From: Candidatus Multivoradales bacterium
GTDB taxonomy: Bacteria > Acidobacteriota > Thermoanaerobaculia > Multivoradales > JAHEKO01
Length of the DNA stretch: 64,000 bases
Assembly: GCA_965223855.1 (NCBI GenBank)
Contig: CBDCXM010000009.1
Coordinates: 1,152,001 to 1,216,000 of the forward strand
Direction of reading: 5' to 3'
Part shown: positions 10,786-54,923 of the stretch, one piece after another
How the letters are laid out: each line of letters starts with the position of its first letter
Numbering within the stretch: the stretch's first letter is position 1
Made by a program: the position numbers and the translations under genes
The notes under the pieces: model-generated
Seen by the model: only the letters and a program-made list of their open reading frames with translations
The model's database searches: none
What the model was told of the DNA's origin: nothing

Positions 10786-10796
10786 GATGACCACTT

Positions 10797-29811: not shown

Positions 29812-31017
29812 GTGTTTCTACTCGAGAACGCCGACGTCTATTCGCCCCGACCTCTGGGCCCGCAGTGGATCCTCGTTGCCGGCGAGAGGGTGGCGTGGAT
29901 GGGCGACTCTGCCCCCGACCTCGGCTCGCGGCTGGAGGTCGAACGGATCGATCTCGAGGGTCGACGACTGATCCCGGGGCTGATCGACGGCCACGTCCAC
30001 GTCACCGGTGGCGGTGGTGAGTCGGGGCCGGCGAGTCGCGTTCCGGCACCACCCCTGAGCGGCTACACCCTCGGCGGCGTGACGTCCGTCGTCGGTCTGC
30101 TGGGCACCGACGACCTCACCCGCACGACCGGCGACCTGGTGACGCGAGTCCGGGCGCTCGAGGAGGAAGGGCTCTCGGCGTGGTGCTACACCGGCGGCTA
30201 CCACTATCCGCCGACCACCCTGACCGGCTCGGTGCGCGGCGACATCGTCTACCTCGATCGGGTGATCGGGGTCGGCGAGCTGGCGATCTCCGACCACCGC
30301 TCGAGTCAGCCGTCGTTCGACGAGTTCCTGAGGGTCGCCGCCGACGCTCACGTCGGCGGGCTGATGACCGGCAAGGCGGGGACCCTGCATCTCCATCTCG
30401 GCGACGGCGAGCGCGGGCTCGAGCTCGTGCGACGCGCTCTCGCCGAGAGTGAGCTGCCGGCGCGGGTCTTCCATCCCACTCACGTCAACCGCCGCGACGC
30501 CCTGCTCGACGAGGCGTTCGCCATGGCGCAGCAGGGGGTGACGATCGACCTGACGGCGTTCCCGGTGGCGGACGACGAGGACGGCCGGACGGCCGCCGCC
30601 GCGCTCGGCGCCTATCTCGACGCCGGGCTGCCCGGCGAGCGGGTGACCGTGAGCTCGGATGGAGGCGGCTGTCTGCCGACCTTCGACGGCGACGGGCGGA
30701 TCGTCGAGATGGAGGTCGGCGACCCGGCGGCGATGCTCGGTGCTCTGGAGGCGCTGCTGATGGCGGGCCGCGCCCTCGAGGCCGTCCTCCCGGCTTTCAC
30801 CAGCAATGTCGCCGACCTGTTGCGGCTGCCCGGCAAGGGGCGGGTCGCGGTCGGGGACGACGCCGACTTCGTGGTGCTTGACGAGCACCACTGCGCTCGC
30901 GACGTGATGGCGCGCGGCCGCTGGCACGTGCGTGGCGGCGAGGCGGTGCGACGCGGTACTTTCGAGGGCGCTGTTTTCGAATCTCCGGCAACCCGCGATC
31001 CGAAGCCAGGATCGTGA
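29812..31017 (+). CDS. iadA: Isoaspartyl dipeptidase (beta-aspartyl peptidase)
   Basis: DGHVHVTGGGGE, GLLGTD, AISDHRSSQP, PTH, SSDG; TAGAAT -10-like hexamer at 29779-29784. Confidence 0.92.
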   Translation: MFLLENADVYSPRPLGPQWILVAGERVAWMGDSAPDLGSRLEVERIDLEGRRLIPGLIDGHVHVTGGGGESGPASRVPAPPLSGYTLGGVTSVVGLLGTDDLTRTTGDLVTRVRALEEEGLSAWCYTGGYHYPPTTLTGSVRGDIVYLDRVIGVGELAISDHRSSQPSFDEFLRVAADAHVGGLMTGKAGTLHLHLGDGERGLELVRRALAESELPARVFHPTHVNRRDALLDEAFAMAQQGVTIDLTAFPVADDEDGRTAAAALGAYLDAGLPGERVTVSSDGGGCLPTFDGDGRIVEMEVGDPAAMLGALEALLMAGRALEAVLPAFTSNVADLLRLPGKGRVAVGDDADFVVLDEHHCARDVMARGRWHVRGGEAVRRGTFEGAVFESPATRDPKPGS

Positions 31018-31030
31018 ACCGAGGTGTGAC

Positions 31031-31891
31031 ATGAGCGGTGGTTTGATCATTCCGATCGGCGGCGCCGAGGACCGGATGCGCGATCCTGCGATCCTGCAGA
31101 AGTTCGTCGACGTCTGCGGCGGCAGGGACGCCCGGATCGCCATCATCCCGACGGCCTCGAGCCTCCCCGAGACCGGCCCCGGCTACGAGAAGGTCTTCGA
31201 GGAACTCGGCGTGCGGCTGGTGCGCTCACTGCCGCTCGAGACGCGCGAGGACTGCAACGATCCGCGCTGGCTCGAACGGCTGGAACGCGCCGACGGCGTC
31301 TTCCTGACCGGCGGCAACCAGTTGAAGCTCTCGACCACCATCGGCGGCACCGAAGTGGCTCGGACCCTCAGGCGGCGCAATGCCGAAGAGGGGCTCCACG
31401 TCGCCGGCACCTCGGCCGGCGCGGCGATCCTCTCCGAGCACATGATCGCGTTCGGCGACGAGGGGTCGACCCCGCACGCCGACATGGTGACGCTGGCGCC
31501 CGGTATCGGGCTCACCCAGAGGGTGATCATCGATCAGCACTTCCGCCAGCGCGACCGGCTGGGGCGACTGCTGACCGCACTGGCCTTCAATCCGCGCGGC
31601 ATCGGCATCGGGCTCGACGAGGACACCGCCGCCTTCCTCTCTCCCGACGGCCTGCTGAAGGTGCGCGGCAGCGGCGCGATCACGGTCGTCGATCCCTCGG
31701 AGCTGGAGTTCTCGTCGATGGATTCGGCGAAACGGCTCGAGCCGGTGTGCATGCTCAACGTGCGGCTTCACATCCTGATCGAGGGGGCGACCTACGACAT
31801 CCCGTCGCGCAGCGCCGCGCCGCCGCCCGCACTCCAGCCGGAGGAGACGCCGTCGAAGGAGCCCGCGCCGAAGGAGGCGGTCACGCCATGA
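31031..31891 (+). CDS. cphB: Cyanophycinase (intracellular)
   Basis: IGGAED, TGGNQ, GTSAGA (Ser), IDQHF (His), GLDEDT (Glu); no signal peptide. Confidence 0.93.
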   Translation: MSGGLIIPIGGAEDRMRDPAILQKFVDVCGGRDARIAIIPTASSLPETGPGYEKVFEELGVRLVRSLPLETREDCNDPRWLERLERADGVFLTGGNQLKLSTTIGGTEVARTLRRRNAEEGLHVAGTSAGAAILSEHMIAFGDEGSTPHADMVTLAPGIGLTQRVIIDQHFRQRDRLGRLLTALAFNPRGIGIGLDEDTAAFLSPDGLLKVRGSGAITVVDPSELEFSSMDSAKRLEPVCMLNVRLHILIEGATYDIPSRSAAPPPALQPEETPSKEPAPKEAVTP

Positions 31892-34683
31892 AGGTCCTGT
31901 CGCGAGCGGTCTACCTCGGGCCGAGCCTCTACGCCCACTTCCCGGTCATCCGGCTGACCCTCGACCTCGAGGAGCTAGAGGAGTGGCCGAGCGGGCGACT
32001 CGGCGCCGAGTTCAACGACCGGCTGCTCGAAGCGCTCCCGGGCCTGGGTCAGCACGGCTGCTCCTACCGAGAGCCGGGGGGTTTCGTCCGCCGGCTCACC
32101 GAGGGCGACGGCACCTGGATGGGGCACATCCTCGAGCACGTGGCGATCGAGCTGCAGAACGTCGCCGGGTCCGCCGTCACGTTCGGCAAGACCCGTGGGA
32201 CCGGCAATCCGCGGGAGTACGACGTCGTCTACCAGTATCTCGATCGCGACGTCGGCCTCGAGGCGGGCAGCCTGGCGATGGAGCTGCTCGAGAGTCTGTT
32301 GCCGGACGAGGTTCGTCCCGCCTCGACCGACCCCGACGGATTCAACTGGGACGACACCCGGGATCGCTTCATCCGCTCTACCCAGCGCCGCGCGCTCGGC
32401 CCGAGCACCGCGTCGATCGTCAAGGCGGCGGAGGAGCGCGACATCCCGTGGCTGCGGCTCAACCGCTACAGCCTGGTGCAGCTCGGTCACGGTGCCTACA
32501 GCCGCCGCATCCAGGCGACGGTGACCGGCGAGACCAAGCACATCGCCGTGGAGCTCGCCTCCGACAAGGAGGAGACCAACAAGATCCTCGCCGATCTCGG
32601 CCTGCCGGTGCCGCGTCAGGAGATGGTCTACGACGAGCGCGACGCCGTTCGAGCGGCGGAGCGCATCGGTTACCCGGTGGTCGTCAAGCCGCTCAACGCC
32701 AACCACGGCCGCGGCGTGTCGATCAACCTGACCGACCGCGAGTCGGTCGCCGTGGGATTCGCCAAGGCGCGCGAGCACAGCCGCGCGGTGCTGGTGGAGA
32801 GCTTCATCACCGGGCTCGACCACCGGCTGCTGGTGGTCAACGGCGAGCTGATCGCCGCCTCGAAGCGGGTCCCGGGCCACGTCGTCGGCGACGGCGAGCA
32901 CACGATCGAGCAGCTGGTGGAGATCGTCAACAGCGACCCGCGGCGCGGCGTCGGCCACGAGAAGGTTCTCACCCGGCTCGAGTTCGACCATCAGGCGGAA
33001 CGGCTCCTGGCGCTCAACGGCCTCGACCACACCAGTGTGCCGGCGGAAGGCGATGTCGTCTTCCTGCGCAAGACCGCCAATCTCTCGACCGGCGGCACGG
33101 CGATCGACGTCACCGACATCATCCATCCCGACAATCGCGAGATGGCGATCCGGGCGGCCCGCGCGATCGGGCTCGACTGCGCCGGCATCGACTTCCTGAC
33201 CGACGACATCTCGCAGTCGTTCCAGGAGAACGGCGGCGCGATCTGCGAGGTCAACGCGGCACCCGGCTTCCGCATGCATGTCGCTCCCAGCGAGGGGCAG
33301 CCGCGGGATGCCGCCGGCCCGGTGATCGACATGCTCTTCCCGCCGGGGACGCCGTCGCGGATCCCTATCGCCTCGATCACCGGCACCAACGGCAAGACGA
33401 CGACCAGCCGCATGACCGCGCACGTCCTCAAGATGAGCGGCAAGCGGGTCGGGCTGACGACTTCGGACGGCGTCTACATCGACGGCTACCGCACCGTGGC
33501 GGGCGACATGACCGGACCGACCGCCGCCCGCATGGTGCTGCGCGACGCGACCTGCGACGTCGCCGTGCTGGAGACCGCGCGCGGCGGCCTGCTGCGTGCC
33601 GGGATGGGCTACCGGCGCAACAACGTCGGCGCGGTGCTCAACGTCGCTGCCGATCATCTGGGCTTGAAAGGGATCGAGACGGTCGAGGAGCTGGCGCGGG
33701 TCAAGCGGATCGTCGTCGAGGTCTCCCGCGACACGGCGGTGCTCAACGCCGACGATCCGCTGTGTCTCAAGATGGCGGACTACACGAGGGCCGATCATCT
33801 CTGCTACGTGACGATGAACCCGCGCCACCCGCTGGTGCGCGAGCACATCAACGCCGACGGCCGCGCCGTGGTCCTCGAAGAGGGGATGAACGGCCACATG
33901 ATCACGATCTACGACGGCGGCACCCACATCCCGCTCCTGTGGACTCACCTCATCCCGGCGACGGTCGAAGGCAAGGCGCTCCACAACGTGCAGAACGCGA
34001 TGTTCGCCGCGGCGATCACGTACTCGATGGGCGTCGGTCTCGACGACATCCGCCAGGGGTTGAGGACCTTCGACACCAGCTACTTCCAGGCGCCGGGGCG
34101 GCTCAACATCTACAACGAGCACCCGTTCAAGGTGATCCTCGACTACGCGCACAACCCGCATGCGGTGCAGGCGATCGTGCGGCTGTGCGACCAGCTCGAC
34201 GTCGAGGGATCGAAGCGCTGCGTGCTGGCGGCGCCGGGCGATCGGCGCGACGAGGACATCGACGAGATCGCGACGATCTGTGCCGGGCACTTCGACCGCT
34301 ACATCGTCAAGCGCGACGACGATGCGCGCGGCCGCGGACCGACCGAGGTGCCGGAGCGGCTCCACAGAGCGCTCGTCGCGGCGGGGGTCGACGAAGCGGC
34401 GATCGAGATCATTGTCGACGAGAAGGAGGCGATCCATACCGCCCTCAAGCGCTCGCAGCACGGCGACTTGCTCCTCATCCTCGGCGACAAGATCAACCGT
34501 TGCTGGAAGCAGATCACCACCTTCTCGCCCGACCTGGAGATGCCTCCCGAGGAAGAGGTGGCGCCGCCACCCAAGGCGGCCGCCCCGGTCGACGATCTGC
34601 CCGAGCTCGACCTGCCGCCGATCGACGACCTGATTCGCGACGAGCGGGGCGTGCGCCTGGCGCGCGAGGAAGAGAACGACTGA
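31888..34683 (+). CDS. cphA: Cyanophycin synthetase CphA1
   Basis: N domain C..GGF..GTWMGHILEH; ATP-grasp VVKP, ANLSTGG, EVNAAPG; Mur domain TGTNGKTT, LETARGG, DHLG, DYAHN. Confidence 0.95.
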   Translation: MKVLSRAVYLGPSLYAHFPVIRLTLDLEELEEWPSGRLGAEFNDRLLEALPGLGQHGCSYREPGGFVRRLTEGDGTWMGHILEHVAIELQNVAGSAVTFGKTRGTGNPREYDVVYQYLDRDVGLEAGSLAMELLESLLPDEVRPASTDPDGFNWDDTRDRFIRSTQRRALGPSTASIVKAAEERDIPWLRLNRYSLVQLGHGAYSRRIQATVTGETKHIAVELASDKEETNKILADLGLPVPRQEMVYDERDAVRAAERIGYPVVVKPLNANHGRGVSINLTDRESVAVGFAKAREHSRAVLVESFITGLDHRLLVVNGELIAASKRVPGHVVGDGEHTIEQLVEIVNSDPRRGVGHEKVLTRLEFDHQAERLLALNGLDHTSVPAEGDVVFLRKTANLSTGGTAIDVTDIIHPDNREMAIRAARAIGLDCAGIDFLTDDISQSFQENGGAICEVNAAPGFRMHVAPSEGQPRDAAGPVIDMLFPPGTPSRIPIASITGTNGKTTTSRMTAHVLKMSGKRVGLTTSDGVYIDGYRTVAGDMTGPTAARMVLRDATCDVAVLETARGGLLRAGMGYRRNNVGAVLNVAADHLGLKGIETVEELARVKRIVVEVSRDTAVLNADDPLCLKMADYTRADHLCYVTMNPRHPLVREHINADGRAVVLEEGMNGHMITIYDGGTHIPLLWTHLIPATVEGKALHNVQNAMFAAAITYSMGVGLDDIRQGLRTFDTSYFQAPGRLNIYNEHPFKVILDYAHNPHAVQAIVRLCDQLDVEGSKRCVLAAPGDRRDEDIDEIATICAGHFDRYIVKRDDDARGRGPTEVPERLHRALVAAGVDEAAIEIIVDEKEAIHTALKRSQHGDLLLILGDKINRCWKQITTFSPDLEMPPEEEVAPPPKAAAPVDDLPELDLPPIDDLIRDERGVRLAREEEND

Positions 34684-34696
34684 CGGGGTTCCGCTC

Positions 34697-36382
34697 TTGG
34701 AAGTCCGCGACAGCCGCCGCCTGACCGGCCCCAACATCGTCTCCGACGGTCCGGCTGCGGTCTTGGACGTCGTGCGCGGCGAGGGTGACGACGCCGAGGC
34801 TGCGATCGCCGCCTGGCGATCGCAGCTCGAGCGGATGCTCATGGCGGTCGGCTGGCAGGGAGCCCAGACCTTCACCCGGATCTTCCACGGCGGCCTGAGC
34901 GTCGCCTTCGCCGCCCCGATCGACGCCCTCTACGCCGCCACCGAGGTCAACGAATGGGCGTGGGCCGCCGCGGTCGAGGAGCTGGGTGGCGACCCGGCGC
35001 CGGAGTTCGAGGCGGAGGCGGAGCGGCTGCGCGCCGAGATCGCGGGCGAGCTGAATCCGCCGGTCCTCGCGCTCCAGAAGGCAGCCGCCGTGCACGGGGT
35101 CCAGTTCCTGTGGGACGACGACTTCGTCTCGGTCGGCCTCGGCTCCGGTTCGCGAACCTGGAAGGTGTCCGGCGTGCCCGACCCGGGCGACGTCGACTGG
35201 GCGTCGGTTCACGATGTCCCGGTGGCTCAGGTGACCGGAACCAACGGCAAGACGACCACGGTGCGGCTCCTCGCTGCGATGGTGCGTGCCGCCGGCAAGG
35301 TCCCCGGCGTTTCGTCGACCGACTGGATCGCCGCGGGTGACGAGCTGCTCGATCGGGGCGACTACTCCGGCCCCGGGGGAGCGCGCCAGGTGCTGCGCGA
35401 CCGCCGGGTCGAATGCGCAATCCTCGAGACCGCGCGCGGCGGGATGCTGCGACGAGGGCTGGCGGTGGAGGCGACCGACGTCGCGCTGGTCAACAACATC
35501 GCGGAGGATCATCTCGGCGAGTTCGGCGTCCACGACCTCGACGCGCTGGCCGAGTGCAAGTTCATCGTCTCCCGGGCGGCGCGGCACATGGTGCTCAATG
35601 CCGATGACCCGGTGGTGCGGCGGCACGGCGAGGCGGTCGAGCAGCCGATTACCTGGTTCTCGCTGGATCGAGAGAACCCGCTCATCATCGCCCATCGCGA
35701 GCGCGGCGGTTCGACGTGCGTCCTCGAGTGGGGGCGGATCGTACTGGCGCAGGGAGACGACAAGGTGGCGGTCGCGGAGGTCGCCGAGGTTCCGGTGACC
35801 CTCGGCGGGGCGGCACGTCACAACGTCGCCAACGTTCTCGCTGCGACGGCGGTCGCGCAGCAGCTCGGCCTTTCCGTGCGCGCGATCGGCGAGGGGTTGC
35901 GCAACTTCGAGAGCACTCCCGACACCAACCCCGGCCGCCTCAACGAGTTCGAGGTCGGCGGTGCGCGGGTCATCGTCGACTTCGCCCACAACCCACACGG
36001 CGTCGAGGCGCTGCTCGAGATGGCGGCGGCACTGCCTGGCAAACGGCGGTTGATCACGATCGGCCAGGCGGGGGATCGCGACGACGACTCGATTCGCGAT
36101 CTCGCCCGGGCGACCTGGAAGGCGGCGCCCGACCGCGTGCTGATCAAGGCGATGACCGCCTATCTCCGAGGCCGCGAGGAGGGCGAGATCCCGGCGATGC
36201 TCGAGGCCGAGATGCGCGCGCACGGCGCGACCGACGCGCATCTGGTGCACACCGGGGACGAGCTCGACACGGCGCGCGCCGCTCTCGACTGGGCCGAGAA
36301 GGGCGATCTCGTGCTCCTGATAGTCCACTCCGATCGCGAGCGGGTGGTCGAGTTCCTGCGCGAGCAGGCTAACGAACGGTGA
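34697..36382 (+). CDS. CphA-like Mur ligase family protein lacking the ATP-grasp domain
   Basis: RLTGPN N-terminus, TGTNGKTT, LETARGG, EDHLG, NADDP, PGRLN, DFAHN; TTG start. Confidence 0.85.
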   Translation: MEVRDSRRLTGPNIVSDGPAAVLDVVRGEGDDAEAAIAAWRSQLERMLMAVGWQGAQTFTRIFHGGLSVAFAAPIDALYAATEVNEWAWAAAVEELGGDPAPEFEAEAERLRAEIAGELNPPVLALQKAAAVHGVQFLWDDDFVSVGLGSGSRTWKVSGVPDPGDVDWASVHDVPVAQVTGTNGKTTTVRLLAAMVRAAGKVPGVSSTDWIAAGDELLDRGDYSGPGGARQVLRDRRVECAILETARGGMLRRGLAVEATDVALVNNIAEDHLGEFGVHDLDALAECKFIVSRAARHMVLNADDPVVRRHGEAVEQPITWFSLDRENPLIIAHRERGGSTCVLEWGRIVLAQGDDKVAVAEVAEVPVTLGGAARHNVANVLAATAVAQQLGLSVRAIGEGLRNFESTPDTNPGRLNEFEVGGARVIVDFAHNPHGVEALLEMAAALPGKRRLITIGQAGDRDDDSIRDLARATWKAAPDRVLIKAMTAYLRGREEGEIPAMLEAEMRAHGATDAHLVHTGDELDTARAALDWAEKGDLVLLIVHSDRERVVEFLREQANER

Positions 36383-37571
36383 CGAGGTCGAGTCCGACGG
36401 CTCGTGCATGCCGGTCGAGGGCGACGTCGATCGCCCGGTCCTCACGCGCGCCGCAGCCGTCCTCGAGGTAGCGCGCCAGCGTCGCGATCGTTCCCGCGCG
36501 CCGGTCGGCCTTGAGATCGACCCGCCCGACCAGCCGTTCGCCGGCGAGCACCGGCAGGCAGTAGTAGCCCCACCGCCGCTGGTGAGCCGGCTTGAAGATC
36601 TCGAGCACCTGTTCGAAGCCGAACAGCAGCTTCGTGCGCTCCCGGTCCCACAGTGCCGGGTCGAAGGGGGAAAGGAGAACTCCCCGGTCGCTCCGCGGGC
36701 GCAGCGTCGCGGCCCGCTCGGCGAGGTCGAGATCCCGAGGCCGGATCCACCCCGCCTGCCGCTTGCCCTGAGGGAGCTGCAGGCTGCAGGGGACGACTCG
36801 ACCCTCCGACTCCAGTTCGGCCAGGGCGGCGTCGATCTCGGCAGTGAGATTGCTCAGCCTCCAGGTGCGGGCGAGGGTCCCCCGGGTCGCCCATCCGTGG
36901 CCGGCGAGCGCGCGCTCGAGGAGGACCTTGAGGCCCCGATGGCGATCGAGCGGCCGCCGTCGGATCTCCTCGGGGATGACCCGCTCGGCGAGGTCGAAGG
37001 AGCGCTGGAAACTGCGGCGCTCGCTGACGGCGAGCACACCGTTCGACCAGTAGGCGCGCAGTACCCGCTTGGCGGCCTTGGGATACCAGCCGCTCCCAGC
37101 GGGTGTCTCCCCCTCGAAGTCGGCGGATCGCAGCGGGCCCTCGTGCTCGATCCGATCGAGCACCTCGCGAGCCAGCGCCGGGTCCTTGCCGACGACGTCG
37201 CCGTACCAGGGGTCGTACTCGAAGTCGCCGCGCCGGAACTCGAACGCCGGGTAGAGCTCCATCGGCAGCCAGCACGCCTCGTGGGCCCAGTACTCGAAGA
37301 CCGGCTCGCCCGGCCGCAGCAGCGCCTCGCCGAAGTCCGGGTCGATTCCCTCGAAGCGCGACAGCAGCACCAGCACGTGACTGCGCGCCCCGGCGACGCC
37401 GACGGTGTCGAGTTGCAGATAGCCGAAGCGCCGCAGCAGCCGGTGAGCCGCGCGCCGTGCGCGCTTGCCGCCGCCCCTCGCCCGTCGCGGCAGACCGGTC
37501 CACTCCGGCTTGACCAGCCCGCCCCGGACGAGCGCCAGCCTGCGGGCGCGGCGGACGTCGATCGAGTTCAA
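36369..37571 (-). CDS. ycaQ: YcaQ/AlkZ (HTH_42) crosslink-repair DNA glycosylase
   Basis: LQLDTV (QxD), EYWAHEAC, LSPFDP, EIFKP..RRWGYY.LPVL, GRVDLKADR. Confidence 0.85.
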   Translation of the reverse strand: MNSIDVRRARRLALVRGGLVKPEWTGLPRRARGGGKRARRAAHRLLRRFGYLQLDTVGVAGARSHVLVLLSRFEGIDPDFGEALLRPGEPVFEYWAHEACWLPMELYPAFEFRRGDFEYDPWYGDVVGKDPALAREVLDRIEHEGPLRSADFEGETPAGSGWYPKAAKRVLRAYWSNGVLAVSERRSFQRSFDLAERVIPEEIRRRPLDRHRGLKVLLERALAGHGWATRGTLARTWRLSNLTAEIDAALAELESEGRVVPCSLQLPQGKRQAGWIRPRDLDLAERAATLRPRSDRGVLLSPFDPALWDRERTKLLFGFEQVLEIFKPAHQRRWGYYCLPVLAGERLVGRVDLKADRRAGTIATLARYLEDGCGAREDRAIDVALDRHARAVGLDLVTVR

Positions 37572-38311
37572 CTGCGCTCGCGCCCGGCCGGCGGCCGGCG
37601 CCGTGCCGAGCGGCGGCCGAAGATCGGCATGACGATCGCCAGCAGCGAGTAGGTCCAGCCAGGCAGGGCGAGCGCCGCCCACCGCTCGGGGAGGACGATC
37701 GCCAGCAGCATCGAGGCGACCCCGGCACCACCGACGATCGACCACGCCACGATCTCCGCGCGGGTCTCGTGGCGTTCGAGCGCGTCGAGCCCAAGAGCAT
37801 TCCGTAAGCGCCAGGCGTGCAGGTTGAGCAGCAGGATCGAAGCACACATGGCGACGAAGCCGGCGCCGTAGATCAGGAACATCTGATTGACCTGTGCCGC
37901 CGACTCGATGCCGGAGCGCCCGCGATCGCTGCCGAGGAGGAGAGAGAACTGATCCGCCATCGCTCCCGACATGAAACGCAGCGGGTAGACATAGACCAGG
38001 ACCGTGAAGACCAGCAGGCAGCTCAGCAGGATGGTCGGCGTGTCGTCGAGGCCGAAGCGGCGGCTCCAGTTGTGGTGGGCTGTCCAGAACATCATCAGCA
38101 GCACCGCGCTGAAGAGGAACGGCGGGATCTCCCACATCACCGCGACCAGGCCTGCGTAGTCATCCGGAACGTCGGTCGCCAGGACGAGAAGCGTCAGCGC
38201 GAAGGCGAACGCCGCGTCGGTGAAGGTCTCGATGCGGGTGGTGGCGAGGCCGCGCAGGCGGAAGCCGTCGCGGGTCGGCAGGTCGGCGAGCTGGCGATCG
38301 GTGAGGCTCAC
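37568..38311 (-). CDS. TMEM175/DUF1211 family membrane protein (K+ channel-like)
   Basis: RIETFTDAAFAFALTLL (RxxxFSD variant), FW.AH, about six TMs. Confidence 0.8.
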   Translation of the reverse strand: MSLTDRQLADLPTRDGFRLRGLATTRIETFTDAAFAFALTLLVLATDVPDDYAGLVAVMWEIPPFLFSAVLLMMFWTAHHNWSRRFGLDDTPTILLSCLLVFTVLVYVYPLRFMSGAMADQFSLLLGSDRGRSGIESAAQVNQMFLIYGAGFVAMCASILLLNLHAWRLRNALGLDALERHETRAEIVAWSIVGGAGVASMLLAIVLPERWAALALPGWTYSLLAIVMPIFGRRSARRRPPAGRERS

Positions 38312-39163: not shown

Positions 39164-40045
39164 TTGAAGCCGGCACCATTCGAATACCGGGCTCCCCGCA
39201 CGCTCGACGAGGTTCTCGAGCTGCTGGCGGAGCACGGCCCGGAGGCGAAGCTGCTGGCGGGCGGGCAGAGCCTGATCCCGGTGATGAACTTCCGGCTGGC
39301 GCAGCCGGCGCTGCTGGTCGATCTCAACGGTGTCGAGGGGCTCGACGGTTGGGAGCCGACGGCGGACGGGGGCGTGCGGATCGGCGGTCTGAGCCGCCTG
39401 AGCGCGCTCGAGCGGCGGCCGGAGTTGGCCGCCCACTCTCCGCTGCTGGCCGAGGCGCTGCCGTGGGTCGCTCATCCGCAGATCCGCAATCGCAGCACCC
39501 TGGGCGGGACCCTCGCCCACGCCGACCCGGCCGCCGAGGTACCGGCGGTCTGTCTCGCCGAGGGGGCGCGGTTCCGGATCGCTCGTCGGGAGGGCGAGCG
39601 CTGGGTCGAGGCGCGCGACTTCTTCCGCGGTCTCTTCGACACCGCGCTCGAGCCGGAGGAGGCGCTGGTCGAAGTCGAGCTGCCGCCGCCGTCCGCCGCT
39701 ACCGGCAGCAGCTTCCAGGAGATCGCCCGCCGGCACGGCGATTACGCTCTCGCCGGCGTCGCGGCGCGCGTCGAGCTCGACGGTGACGGCGCGATCCGTC
39801 GCGCCCGGCTGGTCTACCTGAGTGTCGGCGATACGCCGGTCGAGGCGCGGGCGGCGAGCGACATGCTCGAAGGCGAGAGCCCTTCGTCCGAGCTCTTCGC
39901 CGCCGCCGCGGCGCACGCTGCGGAGCACGAGGTCGATCCGGCCGGCACGATCCACGCCACGCCGGAGTTCACCCGCCATCTGGTCGGGGTGCTCACCCGG
40001 CGAGCGCTGACGGCGGCCGTCGCCCGCGCGGGAGGGGCGGCATGA
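39164..40045 (+). CDS. Xanthine dehydrogenase family FAD-binding subunit (CoxM/CutM-like)
   Basis: KPAPFEY, LAGGQSL, HPQIRNRSTLGG, HADPAAE. Confidence 0.92.
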   Translation: MKPAPFEYRAPRTLDEVLELLAEHGPEAKLLAGGQSLIPVMNFRLAQPALLVDLNGVEGLDGWEPTADGGVRIGGLSRLSALERRPELAAHSPLLAEALPWVAHPQIRNRSTLGGTLAHADPAAEVPAVCLAEGARFRIARREGERWVEARDFFRGLFDTALEPEEALVEVELPPPSAATGSSFQEIARRHGDYALAGVAARVELDGDGAIRRARLVYLSVGDTPVEARAASDMLEGESPSSELFAAAAAHAAEHEVDPAGTIHATPEFTRHLVGVLTRRALTAAVARAGGAA

Positions 40046-40551
40046 GCGACCGGGCTCAGGGCGCCCGTCTACCGGTGCGGCTCGAGGTCAACGGCGCGAG
40101 CTATGAGGGCGAGGCGGAGCCGCGGACGCTCCTTTCCGACTTCCTGCGCCACGACCTCGGGCTGACCGGCACGCACGTCGGCTGTGAGCACGGGGTGTGC
40201 GGCGCCTGTACGGTGCTCTTCGACGGCGAGGCGGTGCGTGCCTGCCTGCTGCTGGCGGTGCAGGCCGACGGCCATCGGATCGAGACGGTGGAGGGGCTCG
40301 CTCCCGCCGACGGCGACGAACGGCTTCATCCGCTGCAGCAGGCGTTCCAGGACGCGCACGGGCTGCAGTGCGGTTTCTGCACCCCGGGCTTTCTGATGAC
40401 GCTGGTGCCGTTCCTCGAGGCGAATCCCGACCCGAGCGAAGAGGAGATCCGGCACGCCATCTCCGGCAACCTGTGCCGTTGCACCGGCTACCAGCACATC
40501 GTCGATGCGGTGCAGCTCGCGGCGCGCCGGCAGCGCGGGGAGGACGAGTGA
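40042..40551 (+). CDS. (2Fe-2S)-binding subunit (CoxS/CutS-like)
   Basis: GCEHGVCGACTV, QCGFCTPG, NLCRCTGY. Confidence 0.94.
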   Translation: MSDRAQGARLPVRLEVNGASYEGEAEPRTLLSDFLRHDLGLTGTHVGCEHGVCGACTVLFDGEAVRACLLLAVQADGHRIETVEGLAPADGDERLHPLQQAFQDAHGLQCGFCTPGFLMTLVPFLEANPDPSEEEIRHAISGNLCRCTGYQHIVDAVQLAARRQRGEDE

Positions 40552-41837
40552 TCGCGAGTCCGGCGCCCGGTTCGCTCGCGGCAGCGTCGGACGTCGACCG
40601 CTGGCTCGAAGGGCTGCGACTCGCCTTCGACGAGGTCGAACCTCTGGTCGGCGCCTTCGTCGAGGAGCCCGATCGCTGGTCGCGGCTCGCGGCTGCCGCG
40701 CGGAGCCTCCTCCTGCGCTACCCCGACGAGCGCGATCGTCCGCCGTTCTTCGGCGTCGCGGTCGGGGTCAAGGACATCTTCCATGTCGACGGTCTCGAGA
40801 CCCGGGCGGGAAGCAGCGTACCGCCGGCCGAGCTCGCCGGCCCGCAGGCGGAGTCGGTACGCCGCCTCGCGGCCGCCGGAGCGATCGTCCTCGGCAAGAC
40901 GGTGACGACCGAGTTCGCCTACTTCGCGCCGCGCGGCACGCGCAACCCGGCCGATCCCGACCGCACTCCGGGCGGGTCGTCGAGCGGCTCGGCCGCGGCC
41001 GTCGCTGCCGGGCTGTGTCCTCTTTCTCTGGGGACACAGACGATCGGCTCGATCTCCCGACCCGCCTCCTACTGCGGCGTGGTCGGCTTCAAGCCGAGCT
41101 ACGAGCGCATCCCGAGGACGGGAGTCATCCCGCTGGCGCCGTCGGTCGATCACGTCGGCTTCTTCACCCCGGATGTCGCGGCCGCCCGCCGGGCCGCCGC
41201 CGTGCTCCTCGACGGCTGGCTCGGCGGGGGAGACGGGCGGCCCCCACGGCTGGCGATTCCGACCGGGCCTTACCTCGACGCCCTCGAGCCGGGTGGGCGC
41301 GAGCGCTTCGAGCGCGGCTGCCGTCTGCTGGCGGACGCCGGGCTGGAGTGGCAGGACGTCCCTGCGATGCCGGACTTCGACGACGTGGTTGCCCGTCACC
41401 GGCGTCTCGTCGCCGCCGAAGCCGCCGAGGTGCATCGCGAGTGGTTCGCGCGCTACGGCGAGAGCTACCACCCGAAGACCCGCGAGCTGATCGAATCGGG
41501 GCTCGAGGTCGACGCCGAAGAGCTGGAAGCGGCACGGCGCGGGCGTCTGCGGCTCCGACAAGAGCTCGAGTCCGAGATGGAGCGCCACGGGATCGACGTC
41601 TGGCTGACGCCGGCCTCCCAGGACGTTGCGCCGACCGGCCTCGACTCGACCGGGGATCCGATCCTCAACCTGCCATGGAGCCATGCCGGTCTGCCATCGA
41701 TCACCCTGCCGTCGATCACTCCGGCGGCTTCGGCGAAGGGCGAGCTGCCGTTCGGGCTGCAGTTCGTCGGCCGGTTCGGCGCCGACGAGGCGCTTCTCGA
41801 GGCGGCAGCCGCGTGGGAAAGGGGGCTCGGCCGTTGA
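40548..41837 (+). CDS. Amidase signature family enzyme
   Basis: GVKD (Lys), PGGSSSGSAAAV, GTQTIGSI.RPASYCG. Confidence 0.9.
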   Translation: MIASPAPGSLAAASDVDRWLEGLRLAFDEVEPLVGAFVEEPDRWSRLAAAARSLLLRYPDERDRPPFFGVAVGVKDIFHVDGLETRAGSSVPPAELAGPQAESVRRLAAAGAIVLGKTVTTEFAYFAPRGTRNPADPDRTPGGSSSGSAAAVAAGLCPLSLGTQTIGSISRPASYCGVVGFKPSYERIPRTGVIPLAPSVDHVGFFTPDVAAARRAAAVLLDGWLGGGDGRPPRLAIPTGPYLDALEPGGRERFERGCRLLADAGLEWQDVPAMPDFDDVVARHRRLVAAEAAEVHREWFARYGESYHPKTRELIESGLEVDAEELEAARRGRLRLRQELESEMERHGIDVWLTPASQDVAPTGLDSTGDPILNLPWSHAGLPSITLPSITPAASAKGELPFGLQFVGRFGADEALLEAAAAWERGLGR

Positions 41838-43495
41838 GCGTCGAGCGCCACATCGTCCGCACCGGGTCCTACTTCGACTCGGTCGTGCTGATGCAGTTGC
41901 AGCGCCGGCTGGCCGAGCTCGACGGGGTCGAGGAGGCGGGGGTGGTCATGGCGACTCGAGCCAACCTCGAGCTGCTCTCGCGAGCGGGTTTGCAGACCGA
42001 GCGAATCGAGGCACGACCGGACGACCTCCTGGTCCTGGTCCGGGGCACGACCGAAGCCGCGGCGCGCAGTGCTCTCGACCGCTTCGACGAGCTGGCGGGC
42101 GAGCGGACCGCGGCCGCGGCGACCGACTACCGCCCGAAGAGTGTGGCGACGGCGCTCAAGGAGCGCCCGGAGGCGAACTGGGTCCTGGTGTCGGTTCCCG
42201 GAGAGTACGCAGCCGCCGTCGCCCGCCAGGCGATCGATGCCGGGCGACACGTCTTCCTCTACAGCGACAACGTGTCGCTGGAAGACGAGGTGGCACTCAA
42301 GCGCCATGCCGAGCGCCGCAGGCGGCTGGTGCTGGGGCCGGACTGCGGCACCGCGATGATCGGCGGGGCGGGCCTCGGCTTCGCCAACCGGGTGCGTCGG
42401 GGGGACGTCGGTATCGTCGCCGCGTCGGGGACCGGTCTCCAGACGATCGCCTCGAGGCTCCATCGTGAGGGGAGAGGGGTGTCGCACGGCATCGGCACCG
42501 GTGGTCGCGATCTGGCGAGCGACGTCGGCGGTCGCACGGCGCTGGCCGCCCTGGCCGCGCTGGCGGCGGACGAGGAGACCCGGGTCGTGGTGCTGGTCTC
42601 GAAGCCGCCGCATCCCGAAGTCGCGGCGCGCCTCCTGTCGGCCGCCGCGAGGGTCGGCAAGCCGGTGGTCGTCCATTTCCAGGGGCGCGGCCTTGCCGGG
42701 CGGCGCCTCGGCCCGCTCCACTTCGCCGTCGACCTCGAGCATGCGGCCGCTCTGGCAGCCGAGCTGGCCGAGAAGCCTCCGCCGCCGTTCGAGCCGACAG
42801 GCGACGGCCTCCTCCGCGGCCTCTTCTCGGGAGGCACGTTGGCGGGCGAGGCGGTGGTGCGGCTCGAGCCTCTGCTGCCGGAACTGGTCTCCAACCTGTC
42901 CAAGGAGAGTTCGATCGTCGATCTTTCGACCTTCGCCGGCCACGCAGTGCTCGACCTCGGGGCCGACCAGTTCACCGTCGGTCGGCCGCACCCGATGATC
43001 GATCCGCAGGTGGTGGCGGAGCACCTCTCCCACGCGGCCGCCGACAAGAGGGTCGCGACGATCGTCGTCGACGTCGTCCTCGGTGACGGTGCCCACCCCG
43101 ACCCGGCGTCAATCCTCGCTCCGGCGATCGAGCGTGCCCGCAGGAAGGCACGCGAGGACCTGGCCGTCCTCGCCCTCGTCGTCGGTACCGAGGAAGACCG
43201 CCAGGAGATCGGCGCGCAGTGCGACCGGCTCGAGGAGGCGGGTGCCGAGGTGTTCGATTCGCTGTCGCCGGCGCTCGAGCGGGTCGTCGCGCGTTCGCTC
43301 CCTCCGAGGACCGAAGACGAGGTTCGGGCGATCGCCCTCGAGCCGCCGCGGGAGGTGATCAACGTCGGCATCGATCTCTTCCGCGAGAGCCTCGAGGCGC
43401 AGGAGGTGCCGGTGCTGCAGGTCGATTGGCGGCCGCCCGCCGGCGGCAACGAGAAACTCGCCACGATCGTGGCGCGACTGAGGGAGAGCGCATGA
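41834..43495 (+). CDS. fdrA: FdrA family acyl-CoA synthetase-like protein
   Basis: YFDSVVLM, SVPG.YA, GPDCGT, IGTGGRDL, GLFSGGTL, GRPHPMIDP; C-terminal DWRPPAGG segment. Confidence 0.9.
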   Translation: MSVERHIVRTGSYFDSVVLMQLQRRLAELDGVEEAGVVMATRANLELLSRAGLQTERIEARPDDLLVLVRGTTEAAARSALDRFDELAGERTAAAATDYRPKSVATALKERPEANWVLVSVPGEYAAAVARQAIDAGRHVFLYSDNVSLEDEVALKRHAERRRRLVLGPDCGTAMIGGAGLGFANRVRRGDVGIVAASGTGLQTIASRLHREGRGVSHGIGTGGRDLASDVGGRTALAALAALAADEETRVVVLVSKPPHPEVAARLLSAAARVGKPVVVHFQGRGLAGRRLGPLHFAVDLEHAAALAAELAEKPPPPFEPTGDGLLRGLFSGGTLAGEAVVRLEPLLPELVSNLSKESSIVDLSTFAGHAVLDLGADQFTVGRPHPMIDPQVVAEHLSHAAADKRVATIVVDVVLGDGAHPDPASILAPAIERARRKAREDLAVLALVVGTEEDRQEIGAQCDRLEEAGAEVFDSLSPALERVVARSLPPRTEDEVRAIALEPPREVINVGIDLFRESLEAQEVPVLQVDWRPPAGGNEKLATIVARLRESA

Positions 43496-44757
43496 CTTCC
43501 AACCCGGTGGACGCGGCCAACCGCGAGGCGCTCGAACGGATGATGGCGGTCCGCCCGGTACTCGAGACCGTGGCGGTGGCCGGTGACGTCGTTCCCGGCC
43601 TCGACGCCAAGCGGATCCTTCACGCCGGGCCGCCGATCGAATGGGCTCGGATGTCGGGCCCGCTGCGCGGCGCGGTGATCGGGGCGCTGCTCTTCGAAGG
43701 GCTCGCCGACTCGCGCGAGTCGGCCATCCACCTCATCGAGCAGGGGGAGATCGCTTTCTCGCCGTGCCACCACCACCACGCCGTCGGCCCGATGGCCGGT
43801 GTGACGTCGGCCTCGATGCAGGTCTACGTCGTGCGCGACGCCGAGGGCAAGGGGCACGCCTATTCGACCCTCAACGAGGGCTACGGCAAGGTGCTGCGCT
43901 ACGGCGCCTACGCCCCCGAGGTGCTGGAGAAGTTGCGCTGGATGAACGTCCAGATGGGGCCGATCCTCGCCGCCGCCCTCGACGCGTGCGGCGGCATCGA
44001 TCTGCGGGCGCTGCTGGCGGAGGCGCTCCATATGGGCGACGAGGGGCACAACCGCAACAAGGCGGGATCGCTCCTCTTCACCCGGCACCTGGCGCCGAGC
44101 ATCTTCGAGGTCGCCGGGGACCGCGCCCTCGGCTCGGCGATCGTCGAGTTCCTCGGCGACAACGCGCTGTCGGTGCTCAATCCGGTGATGGCGGCGTGCA
44201 AGGTGATGGCGGACTCCGCCCACGGCGTCGAGCGCTCGACCCTGGTGACGACGATGGCGCGCAACGGCACCGACTTCGGCATCCGGGTCAGCGGGCTCGG
44301 CGAGCGCTGGTTCACGGCGCCCGCCCAGGTGCCCGACGGCCTCTATTTCCCGGGCTTCACCAGCGACGACGCCAACCCGGACATCGGCGATTCGACGATT
44401 ACCGAGACCGCCGGCATCGGCGCCTTCGCCATGGCGGCGGCGCCTGCGATCGTTAACTTCGTCGGCGGCGCGCCCGAAGAGGCGACGCACGCGACGCTCG
44501 AGATGTACGAGATCACCGCCGGCGAACACAAGCACTTCACGATCCCTCAGCTCGGCTTCCGGGGGACGCCGGTGGGGATCGACCTGCGCGACGTCGTCGA
44601 GCTCGGGGTGACGCCGCGGGTCAACACCGGCATTGCCCATCGCGAGGCCGGTGTCGGCCAGGTGGGAGCGGGCCTCGTGAGGCCGCCGATGAAGATCTTT
44701 GAAGAGGCGCTCGAGGCGTTCGCCGAGCGCTACCTGCCGCGCGAGGCGCGTCCGTGA
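43492..44757 (+). CDS. DUF1116 (YlbE/YahG-like) protein
   Basis: LHAGPP, PCH, AVGPMAG, MGDEGHNRN, ARNG..FGI, DIGDS.ITET, NTGIAH. Confidence 0.9.
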   Translation: MTSNPVDAANREALERMMAVRPVLETVAVAGDVVPGLDAKRILHAGPPIEWARMSGPLRGAVIGALLFEGLADSRESAIHLIEQGEIAFSPCHHHHAVGPMAGVTSASMQVYVVRDAEGKGHAYSTLNEGYGKVLRYGAYAPEVLEKLRWMNVQMGPILAAALDACGGIDLRALLAEALHMGDEGHNRNKAGSLLFTRHLAPSIFEVAGDRALGSAIVEFLGDNALSVLNPVMAACKVMADSAHGVERSTLVTTMARNGTDFGIRVSGLGERWFTAPAQVPDGLYFPGFTSDDANPDIGDSTITETAGIGAFAMAAAPAIVNFVGGAPEEATHATLEMYEITAGEHKHFTIPQLGFRGTPVGIDLRDVVELGVTPRVNTGIAHREAGVGQVGAGLVRPPMKIFEEALEAFAERYLPREARP

Positions 44758-47120
44758 GCGCGGGCGAGAAAACGCTCGTCGGCAAGCGGGTACGGCGCAA
44801 TGAGGACCCGCGCCTGCTGACCGGGCGGGCGCTCTTCGTCGACGACGTCGTGCGCCCGGACATGCTGCACGTGGCGTTCCTGCGCAGCCCCTTCGCCCAC
44901 GCGCGGATCAACGAAGTCGACGTCGATCTGGCGCGCGATCTCGACGGCGTCCACGCTGTCTACACCGCCGCCGACCTGGGAGAGTACTGGCAGCACGGCC
45001 CGCTGCTGGTGCCGCCGCCGCCGGTCGAGGGGGTGGTGTTCCACGAGCGCACCCAGGTGCCGCTGGCGCGTCATAAGATCCGCCACCTCGGCGAGCCGGT
45101 GGCGATGGTGGTGGCGGACAGCCGGGCGATCGCCGAGGACGCGGTCGATCGGATCTTCCTCGATTGCGATCCGCTCGACGCGGTCGTCGACCTGGAACAG
45201 GCGTTGGCGGAGGGGGCGCCGCTCGTTCACGACGACCTGGAGTCGAACCTCGCCGCCTTCGTGCCGCAGAAGAAGGGCGACTACGCCGCGGCGCTCGAAC
45301 GCGCGGACCTCGTGCTGCGTCGGCGCTACGTCTACGACCGCGGTGCTTCGGCGGCGATCGAGAACCGCGGCGTGGTGGCGGAGTGGAATCGCCTCAGCGA
45401 GCGGCTGACCGTCTGGGACACGACGCAGGCGCCGATCCCGATCCGCAACGGCCTCGCGGCGATGCTGGGACTGTCGGAGTCGCAGGTGCGGGTCGTCGCG
45501 CCCTTCGTCGGCGGCGGCTTCGGGCCGAAGATCATGATGTTCTATCCCGAGGAGGTACTGCTGCCGTGGGCGGCGATGCGGCTCGACCGGCCGCTCAAGT
45601 GGATCGAGGATCGCTCGGAGAACTTCGTCGCCACGACCCAGGAACGGGGCCAGATCCACGACGCCGAGATCGCGCTGTCGAAGGACGGGCGTGTGCTGGG
45701 GGTCCGGGACAGCTTCCTCCACGACACCGGCGCCTACGATCCCTACGGCCTCACGGTGCCGCTCAACAGCCAGTGCACGCTGCTCGGGCCCTACGACATC
45801 CCCGCCTACGAGAGTGAGCTGCGGGCGGTCTTCACGAACAAGACGATCGTCACTCCGTACCGCGGCGCCGGTCGCCAGCACGGGGTGTTCGTCATCGAGC
45901 GGCTCCTCGACGCCGCCGCCAGGGAGCTGGGGATCGACCGCATCGAGATTCGGCGGCGCAACTTCATCCGCCCGGAGCAGTTCCCGTACGCCAACGAGGT
46001 GATCTACCAGGACGCGGCGCCGCTGGTCTACGACAGCGGCAACTACGAGCCGCTGCTCGACAAGGCGCGTGAGCTCATCGGCTGGGACGAGTTCGTCACC
46101 ACGACGCAGCCGGAGGCGCGGGCCGCCGGCCGGCACGTCGGCATCGGCATCGTCGCCTACGTCGAAGGGACCGGTATCGGCCCCTACGAGGGGGCGCGGG
46201 TGCAGGTCGAGCCGACGGGGAAGATCACCGTCGTCACCGGCGTCGGCACCCAGGGGCAGGGCCACTACACGGTGCTCGCACAGATCGCCGCCGAGCTGCT
46301 GGGGGCGGAGGTGGACGAGGTCGAGGTGACGACCGGCGATACCGACCAGTTCCACTGGGGGAGCGGCACCTTCGCTTCACGGGGAGCGGTGGTCGCCGGC
46401 AACGCGGTGCGCGCGGCGGCGGCGGACGTGCGGCAGAGGATGCTCGCGCTGGCTGCACGCCACCTCGAGGCAGAAATCGATGAACTCGAGGTCGTCGCCG
46501 GCCATGTCCGGGTCGCTGCGGAGCCGGATCGCACGGTCGATCGTCGCGAGCTGGCGCGCCTCGCCAATCCGCTGCGCGGCGCCGTCGAGCCCGGGACCGA
46601 GCCGGGTCTCGAGTCGACCCAGTACTTCGGGCCGTACCGTGGCGCTACCGCGAGTGGCGTGCATGCCGCGATCGTCGAGATCGATCCGGAGACGATGCTG
46701 GTCGAGATCCTCGACTACGTCGTGGTGCACGACTGCGGCAAGGTGCTCAACCCGCTGCTGGTCGACGGGCAGGTGCACGGCGGGGTGGCGCAGGGGGTCG
46801 GCAACGCCTTCTACGAGCAGCTCGTCTACGACGACGGCGGCCAGCTCCTCAACGCCTCGTTCATGGATTTCCTGTTGCCGACGGCGCTCGACGTGCCGCG
46901 GGTCAAGGTCGGCCACCTCGAGACGCCGTCGCCGCTCAATGAGCTGGGCTCCAAGGGAGCCGGAGAGGCGGGCGCGATCCCGACCGGGGCGCTCTTCGTC
47001 CAGGCGGTCGAGGATGCACTGCGCATCCCCGGATTCGAGATCCGGGAGATCCCGCTCCACCCAAGTCGCCTGTGGGAGCTGGCGACGGCAGCCCGCGCGG
47101 AGGCGGAGGAGGCCTCATGA
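44754..47120 (+). CDS. Xanthine dehydrogenase family molybdopterin-binding subunit (form II CoxL/CutL-like)
   Basis: EDPRLLTG, VGGGFGPK, PYRGAGR, QGQGH, GTFASR, GQVHGG, KGAGEAG. Confidence 0.93.
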   Translation: MSAGEKTLVGKRVRRNEDPRLLTGRALFVDDVVRPDMLHVAFLRSPFAHARINEVDVDLARDLDGVHAVYTAADLGEYWQHGPLLVPPPPVEGVVFHERTQVPLARHKIRHLGEPVAMVVADSRAIAEDAVDRIFLDCDPLDAVVDLEQALAEGAPLVHDDLESNLAAFVPQKKGDYAAALERADLVLRRRYVYDRGASAAIENRGVVAEWNRLSERLTVWDTTQAPIPIRNGLAAMLGLSESQVRVVAPFVGGGFGPKIMMFYPEEVLLPWAAMRLDRPLKWIEDRSENFVATTQERGQIHDAEIALSKDGRVLGVRDSFLHDTGAYDPYGLTVPLNSQCTLLGPYDIPAYESELRAVFTNKTIVTPYRGAGRQHGVFVIERLLDAAARELGIDRIEIRRRNFIRPEQFPYANEVIYQDAAPLVYDSGNYEPLLDKARELIGWDEFVTTTQPEARAAGRHVGIGIVAYVEGTGIGPYEGARVQVEPTGKITVVTGVGTQGQGHYTVLAQIAAELLGAEVDEVEVTTGDTDQFHWGSGTFASRGAVVAGNAVRAAAADVRQRMLALAARHLEAEIDELEVVAGHVRVAAEPDRTVDRRELARLANPLRGAVEPGTEPGLESTQYFGPYRGATASGVHAAIVEIDPETMLVEILDYVVVHDCGKVLNPLLVDGQVHGGVAQGVGNAFYEQLVYDDGGQLLNASFMDFLLPTALDVPRVKVGHLETPSPLNELGSKGAGEAGAIPTGALFVQAVEDALRIPGFEIREIPLHPSRLWELATAARAEAEEAS

Positions 47121-54239: not shown

Positions 54240-54297
54240 ACGTCCCTGATCCCCCGCCTTCCCCGCGGTTCCGGCCCGCAGCGCTCTTGCCAGGTCC

Positions 54298-54324
54298 GTG
54301 CGGTCCTCGGAGCGAAGGCGTTTC
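54298..54324 (+). promoter_or_regulatory. Putative ECF sigma promoter, copy 2
   Basis: GTGCG gtcctcggagcgaa GGCGTTTC upstream of the gene at 54378. Confidence 0.7.
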
Positions 54325-54377
54325 ATGGGGTGGCGATCGGCAGCGGATGCCGGTGCCTTCGACCGCAAGGAGGAGTT

Positions 54378-54884: not shown

Positions 54885-54894
54885 CGTCTCCTCG

Positions 54895-54923
54895 GCTCAG
54901 CACTGGGCCGCTCAGCGCTGGGC
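54895..54923. repeat. Tandem 15-bp-period repeat GCTCAGCRCTGGGC x2
   Basis: Copies at 54895-54908 and 54910-54923, each near-palindromic, just before TATGCT at 54931. Confidence 0.55.

Follow-up and report, generated by a model that had tools for sequence, protein, structure and literature searches.

In a 64,000-nucleotide (nt) stretch of DNA from Candidatus Multivoradales bacterium (contig CBDCXM010000009.1; this whole stretch is called the window below), we found that the gene at 34697..36382 on the forward strand, here called X, encodes a 561-amino acid (aa) homologue of the cyanophycin synthetase CphA1 that has lost the ATP-grasp G domain, responsible for extending the poly-Asp backbone, together with the peptidase site of the N domain. 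What is left is an N-like domain, a remnant of the G domain and a Mur-type M domain. Since both the polymer-holding N domain and the M domain have been kept, X retains the modules that make up the Arg-adding site. The gene closes a cyanophycin operon, and its relatives form an intact, widespread and unstudied family. We give an even chance to the reading that X works as a stand-alone N-M enzyme of the CphA family, namely a trans-acting, ATP-dependent ligase that would put Arg or Lys on the Asp side chains of cyanophycin as an accessory to CphA1.

Domain architecture and predicted fold

The reading frame of X is free of stop codons over all 561 aa (the coordinates include the stop codon), and its TTG initiation codon agrees with the starts of its homologues, which begin with M-x-[LV]-x-DSRRLTGPN. 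Residues 1-118 (34697..35050, forward strand) are a diverged CphA-type N domain, recognized with hhalign and Foldseek, that carries DSRRLTGPN and APIDALYAATEVNEWAW and has neither an HxxEH motif nor any Cys. Residues 119-171 (35051..35209, forward strand) hold a G-domain remnant of ~50 aa, comprising the first helix and strands of the ATP-grasp fold (NPPVLALQKAA..VSVGLGSGS; hhalign), plus the linker to the P-loop of the M domain; residues 119-153 are the only part that aligns to the start of G. Among X homologues, conservation in the first 170 aa is strong at both N-domain motifs and at NP..LAL..AA and SVGLG.GS.

No Pfam model matched these N-terminal 170 aa, and Cyanophycin_syn (PF18921) was not found in them. 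By hhalign profile-profile comparison, X 1-153 matched the N domain of CphA1 together with the beginning of G with a probability of 95% (E 3.6e-8) and X 1-67 matched CphA1 2-67 (E 1.9e-6), while X 101-153, compared with the whole G-domain profile, was placed exactly at the colinear N/G junction (E 3.6e-5, probability 71%). The original prediction had paired LNPPVLALQKAA..VSVGLG of X with LGPSTASIVKAA..VQLGHG at the start of G in the adjacent CphA; this pairing holds at the profile level, just given, but not pairwise, where BLASTP found 25% over 40 aa with a non-significant E of 0.85. The likeness of the X N-terminus to the CphA1 N domain is thus remote, and it is the fold match described below that confirms it.

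Beyond the remnant, the G domain of CphA1 is missing: no ATP-grasp Pfam model matched X, while the CphA1 encoded directly upstream (the partner) matches seven ATP-grasp-type models, Cyanophycin_syn and both Mur domains. The peptidase site is likewise absent from X. HxxEH was found within the first 175 aa of none of 128 X-family members versus 57 of the 64 CphA1s examined, and the CphA1 stretch bearing Cx19-21HxxEH aligns to a gap in X. This primer-generating site, given as Cx19HxxEH, is present in ~80% of CphA1s according to the available text of PMC9262961. The partner has it as Cx21HILEH (32059-32139, with HILEH at 32125-32139). Profiles, fold and motif counts therefore all agree with what had been read from the DNA at the outset, namely a CphA-like N-terminus, a short G-start remnant, an intact Mur domain and no HxxEH in X, next to a CphA that retains HxxEH.

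An AlphaFold2 model of X built on 128 sequences had a mean predicted local distance difference test (pLDDT) score of 94.9 and a predicted template modelling (pTM) score of 0.93. When this model was searched with Foldseek, the top matches in the PDB were whole CphA1 chains (7lgj, 7lg5 and 7lgq), with TM-scores normalized to X (TMq) of 0.84-0.86 and E-values of 1e-40 to 4e-42. The alignments span ~880 columns and have the G domain as their sole gap; MurE reached a TMq of only ~0.5. Because the M domain is 70% of X, which is insufficient alone for a TM-score of 0.86, the N-like part is predicted to pack on M as it does in CphA1. In the model, X keeps a CphA1-like mutual arrangement of its N-like part and M.

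Conservation of the M domain and family assignment

The only Pfam matches of X are Mur_ligase_M, corresponding to Mcore (residues 179-387; 35231..35857, forward strand; 71 bits, cutoff 24), and Mur_ligase_C, corresponding to Mlid (residues 413-541; 35933..36319, forward strand; 63.1 bits, cutoff 28.4). Both are above their gathering scores (PF08245 and PF02875), which places X in the Mur ligase superfamily. On the forward strand, Mcore contains the P-loop TGTNGKTT (residues 180-187, including K185; 35234-35257), LETARGG (residues 243-249, including E244) and DHLG (residues 271-274, with D271-H272 at 35507-35512), and Mlid contains DFAHN (residues 428-432) as part of DFAHNPHG, followed by GQAGDRDD and RGREEGE (36167-36187). 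The four motifs quoted in the original prediction (TGTNGKTT, LETARGG, DHLG and DFAHN) were all found, and they are invariant or nearly so among the 128 X-family members, as are K185, T208, E244, D271-H272 and RGR..GE.

X aligns with SuCphA1 487-855, and its K185, T208, E244 and D271/H272 align to K499, T522, E558 and D585/H586 of SuCphA1/TeCphA1. In the parts of these sources available to us, K499, T522 and E558 are described as the ATP and Mg ligands of the CphA1 M domain (PMC9427784) and D585/H586 as positions of M-inactivating mutations (PMC9262961). With the P-loop Lys, the Mg ligands and the catalytic Asp-His pair all in place, the M domain of X looks active as judged from its sequence. 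In 63 CphA1s, 67 M columns reach at least 90% conservation; of these, 52 have the same residue in at least 80% of the 128 X-family members, 13 are variable and two are conserved but different (R492->D173 and S547->G228). R190, D222, A246-R247-G248, N432 and G492-R493 are common to CphA1 and X and unlike E. coli MurE. In the alignment, R491 of X falls on a conserved E. coli MurE Arg, that of the DNPR motif.

Scores against family models set X apart from peptidoglycan ligases and from full-length CphA1. The NCBIfam cyanophycin synthetase model TIGR02068 gave 368.6 bits over model positions 477-860 only, below the cutoff of 850 for a full-length CphA1, and X also remained under the cutoffs of murE (106.2 bits, cutoff 257.3) and murF (64.5 bits, cutoff 288.6). 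In a profile search of the PDB, CphA1 reached 348 bits, and no Mur-type entry other than CphA exceeded 93 bits. X is not a CphA2 either, as that class combines an active G with a truncated, inactive M, the opposite pattern.

A word-indexed search with X found 7995 significant matches among 8000 scored candidates. The best 120 relatives have 550-632 aa and the same two Pfam domains, come from Gemmatimonadota, Thermoanaerobaculia and Acidobacteriota, and carry the names ‘Mur ligase family protein’, ‘UDP-N-acetylmuramyl tripeptide synthase’ or ‘cyanophycin synthetase’; named relatives overall extend to Gemmatimonadota, Acidobacteriota, Pseudomonadota, Planctomycetota and Myxococcota. With a profile of the N domain and G remnant (the first ~170 aa), 633 clusters at 50% identity were identified with E<=1e-10, and among the best 150 of these clusters the full-length proteins have ~556-620 aa, the shorter ones probably being fragments. 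A search of the ESM Atlas yielded nothing but unnamed ‘Mur ligase family’ clusters. One X-family member (P0236) is 757 aa long, with a DUF559/restriction-endonuclease-like insertion after about residue 101 of the N-like domain. As the original prediction had supposed, we found no characterized example or other description of a G-less CphA in the literature searched, which took in text of PMC10206079, PMC5178258, PMC9262961, PMC9427784, PMC9974463, PMC10687191, PMC10273328, PMC11915815 and PMC7527133; supplements, Sharon et al. 2021 and the older genome surveys of Krehenbrink 2002 and Füser & Steinbüchel 2007 lay outside its coverage.

Operon context and linkage to cphA1

X is the final gene of a tightly packed iadA-cphB-cphA1-X operon, as cphB and iadA lie upstream, cphB and cphA1 overlap, and a convergent gene follows. 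The first gene, iadA (29812..31017, forward strand), encodes a beta-aspartyl (isoaspartyl) dipeptidase (TIGR01975, 382 bits, cutoff 331). It is followed by cphB for cyanophycinase (30932..31891, forward strand; TIGR02069, 254 bits, cutoff 126.6; Pfam S51), a gene whose real start probably lies further downstream than 30932. Its stop codon and the start codon of cphA1 overlap within ATGA (31888-31891). The partner cphA1 (31888..34683, forward strand) encodes a full N-G-M protein of 931 aa from its ATG (TIGR02068, 1144 bits, cutoff 850) with intact M motifs, and a spacer of 13 nt separates its stop codon from the TTG of X (34681-34697). Downstream, the unit is terminated by a convergent AlkZ-like gene on the minus strand (36369-38135) that overlaps the 3′ end of X by 14 nt.

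To place X in other genomes, we scanned genome_contigs and inspected loci of ±8 kb. This yielded 76 loci (numbered with an L here), mostly of true cphA1 genes since the search patterns are common to both. Eight loci were matched through X itself (L001-L006, L011 and L019), and L015 ends at a contig edge. All eight contain a CphA-type N-G-M gene and cphB within 0.8-3.9 kb of X, and in five of the eight X lies 3-46 nt behind cphA1. Two of the three refuting outcomes named in the original prediction, a missing link to cphA in other genomes and a grouping with MurE/MurF, were thus not seen: the link holds in all eight loci, and the grouping is contradicted by the scores above and the tree below. 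Beyond iadA, cphB and cphA1, none of the other window genes is a conserved neighbour across the X loci. A 2-kb gap in L001 holds unrelated genes for an outer membrane protein and a DUF4349 protein. In L002, an intact X adjoins a CphA-like gene of 602 aa (9717-11528, minus strand) that has a good N domain with HxxEH, no ATP-grasp Pfam match, the P-loop GSFGKT, ADSG replacing ARGG, no DH motif and no Mur_ligase_C; from its sequence, this would be either a decaying cphA or a non-catalytic form.

Phylogeny and a second G-less type

Among the loci we identified a second type of G-less protein, with a CphA-type N domain fused straight to the P-loop, in ten loci of Actinomycetota, Chloroflexota and Thermomicrobiota (L020, L021, L022, L024, L028, L050, L056, L060, L062 and L073; for example, L022 7530-9212, forward strand). 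Its N domain matches that of CphA1 with an hhalign probability of 97% (E 8.7e-11) and keeps the peptidase helix with HxxEH lost, and the ATP, Mg and catalytic residues of the M domain are invariant in the ten proteins as well. A cphA1 G domain is present in seven of the ten loci, two of which had been fetched through cphA1. When the N domains of the two G-less types were compared with each other, ~25 residues aligned (hhalign probability 66%); because this is all that aligns, a common G-less ancestor of the two N domains cannot be demonstrated.

For an M-domain tree we used 106 rows (33 of the 128 X-family members, 10 of the second type and 63 CphA1s, with one short row dropped) in a quick IQ-TREE run supported by the Shimodaira-Hasegawa-like approximate likelihood ratio test (SH-aLRT) only. 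The X family falls on one side of a branch (SH-aLRT 98), as does the second type (96), and the two are jointly split from all 63 CphA1 M domains (99). The CphA1s that adjoin X form a single clade of 11 rows (100). Those that adjoin the second type form its sister clade of seven rows (100; joint clade 84), and the loci of the remaining 45 CphA1 rows contain no G-less gene. X thus co-diversifies with one CphA1 clade.

The original prediction described X as a paralog made by a clean deletion from the adjacent cphA1. Taken as a recent event, this does not stand: X and the partner M domain are 34% identical over 377 aa (BLASTP, E 3e-60), which, together with the split from all sampled CphA1 M domains, means that X did not arise by recent deletion from the gene next to it and represents an old, separate lineage. 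Because of the same split, either the loss of G is ancient or the root is not resolved. The G remnant argues for an N-G-M ancestor that lost G long ago, with the direction of change not settled. In a rooted tree with E. coli MurC, MurD, MurE and MurF added (66 rows, including 35 of the 63 CphA1s), CphA1 is monophyletic (SH-aLRT 99) and the four Mur ligases lie outside the group of CphA and X, so that X does not join MurE or MurF in the tree any more than in its scores. The root lands within the G-less proteins, where support is weak (73 and 86) and the outgroup branches are very long; for these reasons we claim neither that the G-less proteins are the ancestral form nor that they arose by two independent losses.

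C-terminal tails of the partner CphA1s

CphA1s that adjoin X have long tails beyond the last M motif, with a median of 63.5 aa versus 23 aa in 46 other CphA1s. These tails end in [DE]ERG[VIL]R..A.E..D, a motif found in 8 of the 11 rows of the X-partner clade, none of the 46 other CphA1s and none of the seven second-type partners; all eight motif-bearing sequences have Asp as their last residue. The three remaining rows of the clade are L006 and L069, which have no motif, and L036, which ends at a contig edge. In the window, the partner tail motif is LIRDERGVRLAREEEND (34630..34680, forward strand), with Asp as the final residue. The corresponding tail regions lie at 5784-5963 in L001, 7810-7989 in L003, 7803-7982 in L004, 7795-7974 in L005, 7816-7995 in L011, 7773-7952 in L019 and 9138-9317 in L074. 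In partners of the second type the tails have another motif in common, DP[DG][LFE], and do not end in Asp. Such clade-specific sequences suggest a docking or pseudo-substrate behaviour of the tail. When a complex of X and the C-terminal 60 aa of the partner was predicted, each of the two runs gave a score of 0.00, which speaks neither for nor against contact.

Proposed function and alternative explanations

Mur ligases act through an acyl-phosphate intermediate. If X is the accessory side-chain ligase proposed above, the cyanophycin chain would be held between its N-like domain and Mcore, and ATP-Mg (K185, T208 and E244) would be used to phosphorylate the free beta-carboxylate of an Asp that carries no Arg, with D271/H272 serving as in CphA1. 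The alpha-amino group of L-Arg, or possibly Lys, held by Mlid (RGR..GE), would then be joined to it. We infer that X would do so in trans, as an accessory to the CphA1 encoded upstream, and would finish or rescue chains with an undecorated terminal Asp.

Several points weigh against this function. It is drawn from sequence, a predicted fold and gene context, and the N domain is so highly diverged that polymer binding would follow from the predicted fold alone. The M domain encoded by the partner cphA1 is itself apparently intact, which leaves no evident need for a second M. X may do without a functional neighbour, given that in L002 the CphA-like gene next to an intact X is degenerate, and L074 has a close CphA1 with the tail motif and no X within 8 kb. 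Finally, residues invariant in X include G228 (Ser in CphA1), D173 (Arg in CphA1), R234, R253, N411, H434 and Q457, and these could indicate a changed acceptor or amino acid.

The same residues, in or near the M site and different from the CphA1 consensus, are what favours an unlikely but still serious alternative, in which X is an active ligase with another substrate pair (Lys, Orn, citrulline, another amine or another polymer carboxylate) and makes a variant cyanophycin; that the partner already has its own Arg-adding M domain points the same way. The idea of another amine and a cyanophycin variant was part of the original prediction and has gained little support, as 52 of the 67 CphA1-conserved M columns are unchanged, including RGR..GE of Mlid, and only two are conserved but different. 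The first Arg of RGR..GE also aligns with the conserved E. coli MurE Arg.

It is distinctly improbable that X is a priming enzyme that supplies the terminus for G to extend, be it by joining free Asp and Arg into beta-Asp-Arg or short seeds, or by adding Arg to the Asp at the C-terminal end of the partner tail. The tail is specific to the X-partner clade and Asp-ended wherever the motif is present, the partners of the second type having a tail motif of their own; in addition, the available text of PMC9427784 states that the M site requires a C-terminal Asp without Arg, and that of PMC9262961 describes de novo initiation by CphA1 as slow. Against this, the partner retains Cx21HxxEH, the known primer-generating site, L006 has X with a CphA1 that lacks the tail motif, tails of second-type partners are not Asp-ended, and contact between tail and X would be an assumption.

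A more specific form of this idea, which we consider a long shot, is that X and its partner make up a two-component, tail-primed cyanophycin synthetase, with the Asp-ended tail (..DERGVRLAREEEND) as a built-in pseudo-primer. X would dock on the CphA1 tail and arginylate its terminal Asp, giving a protein-bound beta-Asp-Arg end that the G domain would lengthen, and the HxxEH site could later release the chain. The clade-specific tails, which differ between the partners of the two G-less types, would then act as a docking code.

We see just as slim a chance that X serves mainly as a structural or regulatory subunit of CphA1 oligomers and that its own catalytic activity is of no importance. Co-diversification with one CphA1 clade that has clade-specific tails is consistent with such a role, as are contacts of Mcore with the G cores of neighbouring protomers in CphA1 tetramers, described in the available part of PMC9427784. 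Invariant ATP, Mg and catalytic residues in 128 X-family members and in ten second-type proteins would be unexpected in a pseudoenzyme.

That X is a functionless, decaying remnant of a duplicated cphA has next to no probability left: a whole domain is missing relative to its relatives and one cphA-like neighbour (L002) is visibly degenerate, but we rejected this explanation on the intact frame, the 633 clusters, the constant full-length size in the best 150, the spread over several phyla and the invariant catalytic residues, and the fold is confidently predicted. Rejected most firmly of all, as almost certainly wrong, is an ordinary MurE/MurF-like peptidoglycan ligase that merely adjoins cphA, for which the annotation of relatives as ‘UDP-N-acetylmuramyl tripeptide synthase’ or ‘Mur ligase family protein’ and the solely Mur-type Pfam matches would speak, and which is contradicted by the sub-cutoff murE score, the higher scores for the cyanophycin synthetase model and PDB CphA1, a CphA N fold in place of a Mur N domain, the position of the E. 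coli Mur ligases outside CphA and X, and the CphA-type gene linked in all eight loci.

Comparison with known systems

X resembles CphA1 (7LG5/7LGJ/7LGQ and 7WAC-7WAF) in its N fold, in an M domain made of Mcore and Mlid, in the ATP, Mg and catalytic residues and in sharing its operon; it differs by the absence of the ATP-grasp G beyond the remnant and of Cx19HxxEH, and by an M domain that falls outside the clade of the 63 CphA1s. Compared with CphA2, as presented in the available text of PMC10273328, both are derived, simplified CphA members with one biosynthetic site and a non-catalytic N domain. However, CphA2 has an active G and a truncated, inactive M, and X with its complete M and no G is the mirror image; CphA2 is also described there as a cyanobacterial enzyme, and the named relatives of X occur in other phyla.

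Tandem cphA′/cphA pairs (‘CphA1, CphA2’) are reported for Sideroxydans and Gallionella in the available part of PMC5178258. Such betaproteobacterial pairs are similar to cphA1-X in having two adjacent CphA-family genes with signs of divided labour, but both of their genes keep G, the upstream one has a shortened M, and none is N-M. We found an N-G-short-M gene followed by a G-M gene in L055, L059, L064, L072 and L075. In a related observation, the seven of 64 CphA1s without HxxEH (L030, L043, L053, L055, L059, L072 and L075) all belong to a betaproteobacterial-type clade, and a gene that combines N and G with a shortened M lies upstream in L053, L055, L059, L072 and L075 (also in L064), which fits the cphA′/cphA tandem. 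Mur ligases share with X the central and C-terminal domains, the P-loop, the Mg ligands, the DH motif and the Arg of the C-terminal domain. They differ in that the acceptor-binding N-terminus of X has the CphA N fold, in the far lower scores and the TMq of ~0.5, and in that X has no cell-wall gene context.

Other features of the window

The window has a G+C content of ~70%. No tRNA genes or Rfam families were found in its whole 64 kb, and promoter and terminator scans gave nothing useful. A few kb from the cyanophycin operon lies a gene cluster of nitrogen-catabolism type (39164-47120), which consists of the FAD-binding subunit (39164-40045) and the 2Fe-2S subunit (40042-40551) of a xanthine-dehydrogenase-family enzyme, an FdrA-like protein with a CoA-ligase domain (inside 40505-43495), the AllG oxamate carbamoyltransferase (43219-44757) and a xanthine-dehydrogenase-family molybdopterin subunit (44754-47120). 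Further downstream, 51516-57570 and 61098-63971 hold two adjacent Ser/Thr protein kinases with PD40 beta-propeller repeats, plus a TPR-CHAT protein.

Implications for cyanophycin synthesis

Current descriptions recognize two classes of enzymes, CphA1 with three active domains and CphA2 with G only. If X is a trans-acting side-chain ligase, it would stand for a third, widespread, M-only class tied to one CphA1 lineage, and backbone extension and decoration would be separable in nature. X would then be a ready-made, soluble side-chain ligase acting in trans for study of the M reaction or for tailoring of the polymer. It also makes the purpose of the long, conserved C-terminal tails of CphA1 testable, and should priming on the tail prove true, this would be a glycogenin-like start of a non-ribosomal polymer. 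Among the database entries labelled ‘UDP-N-acetylmuramyl tripeptide synthase’ or ‘Mur ligase family protein’, hundreds probably represent cyanophycin enzymes.

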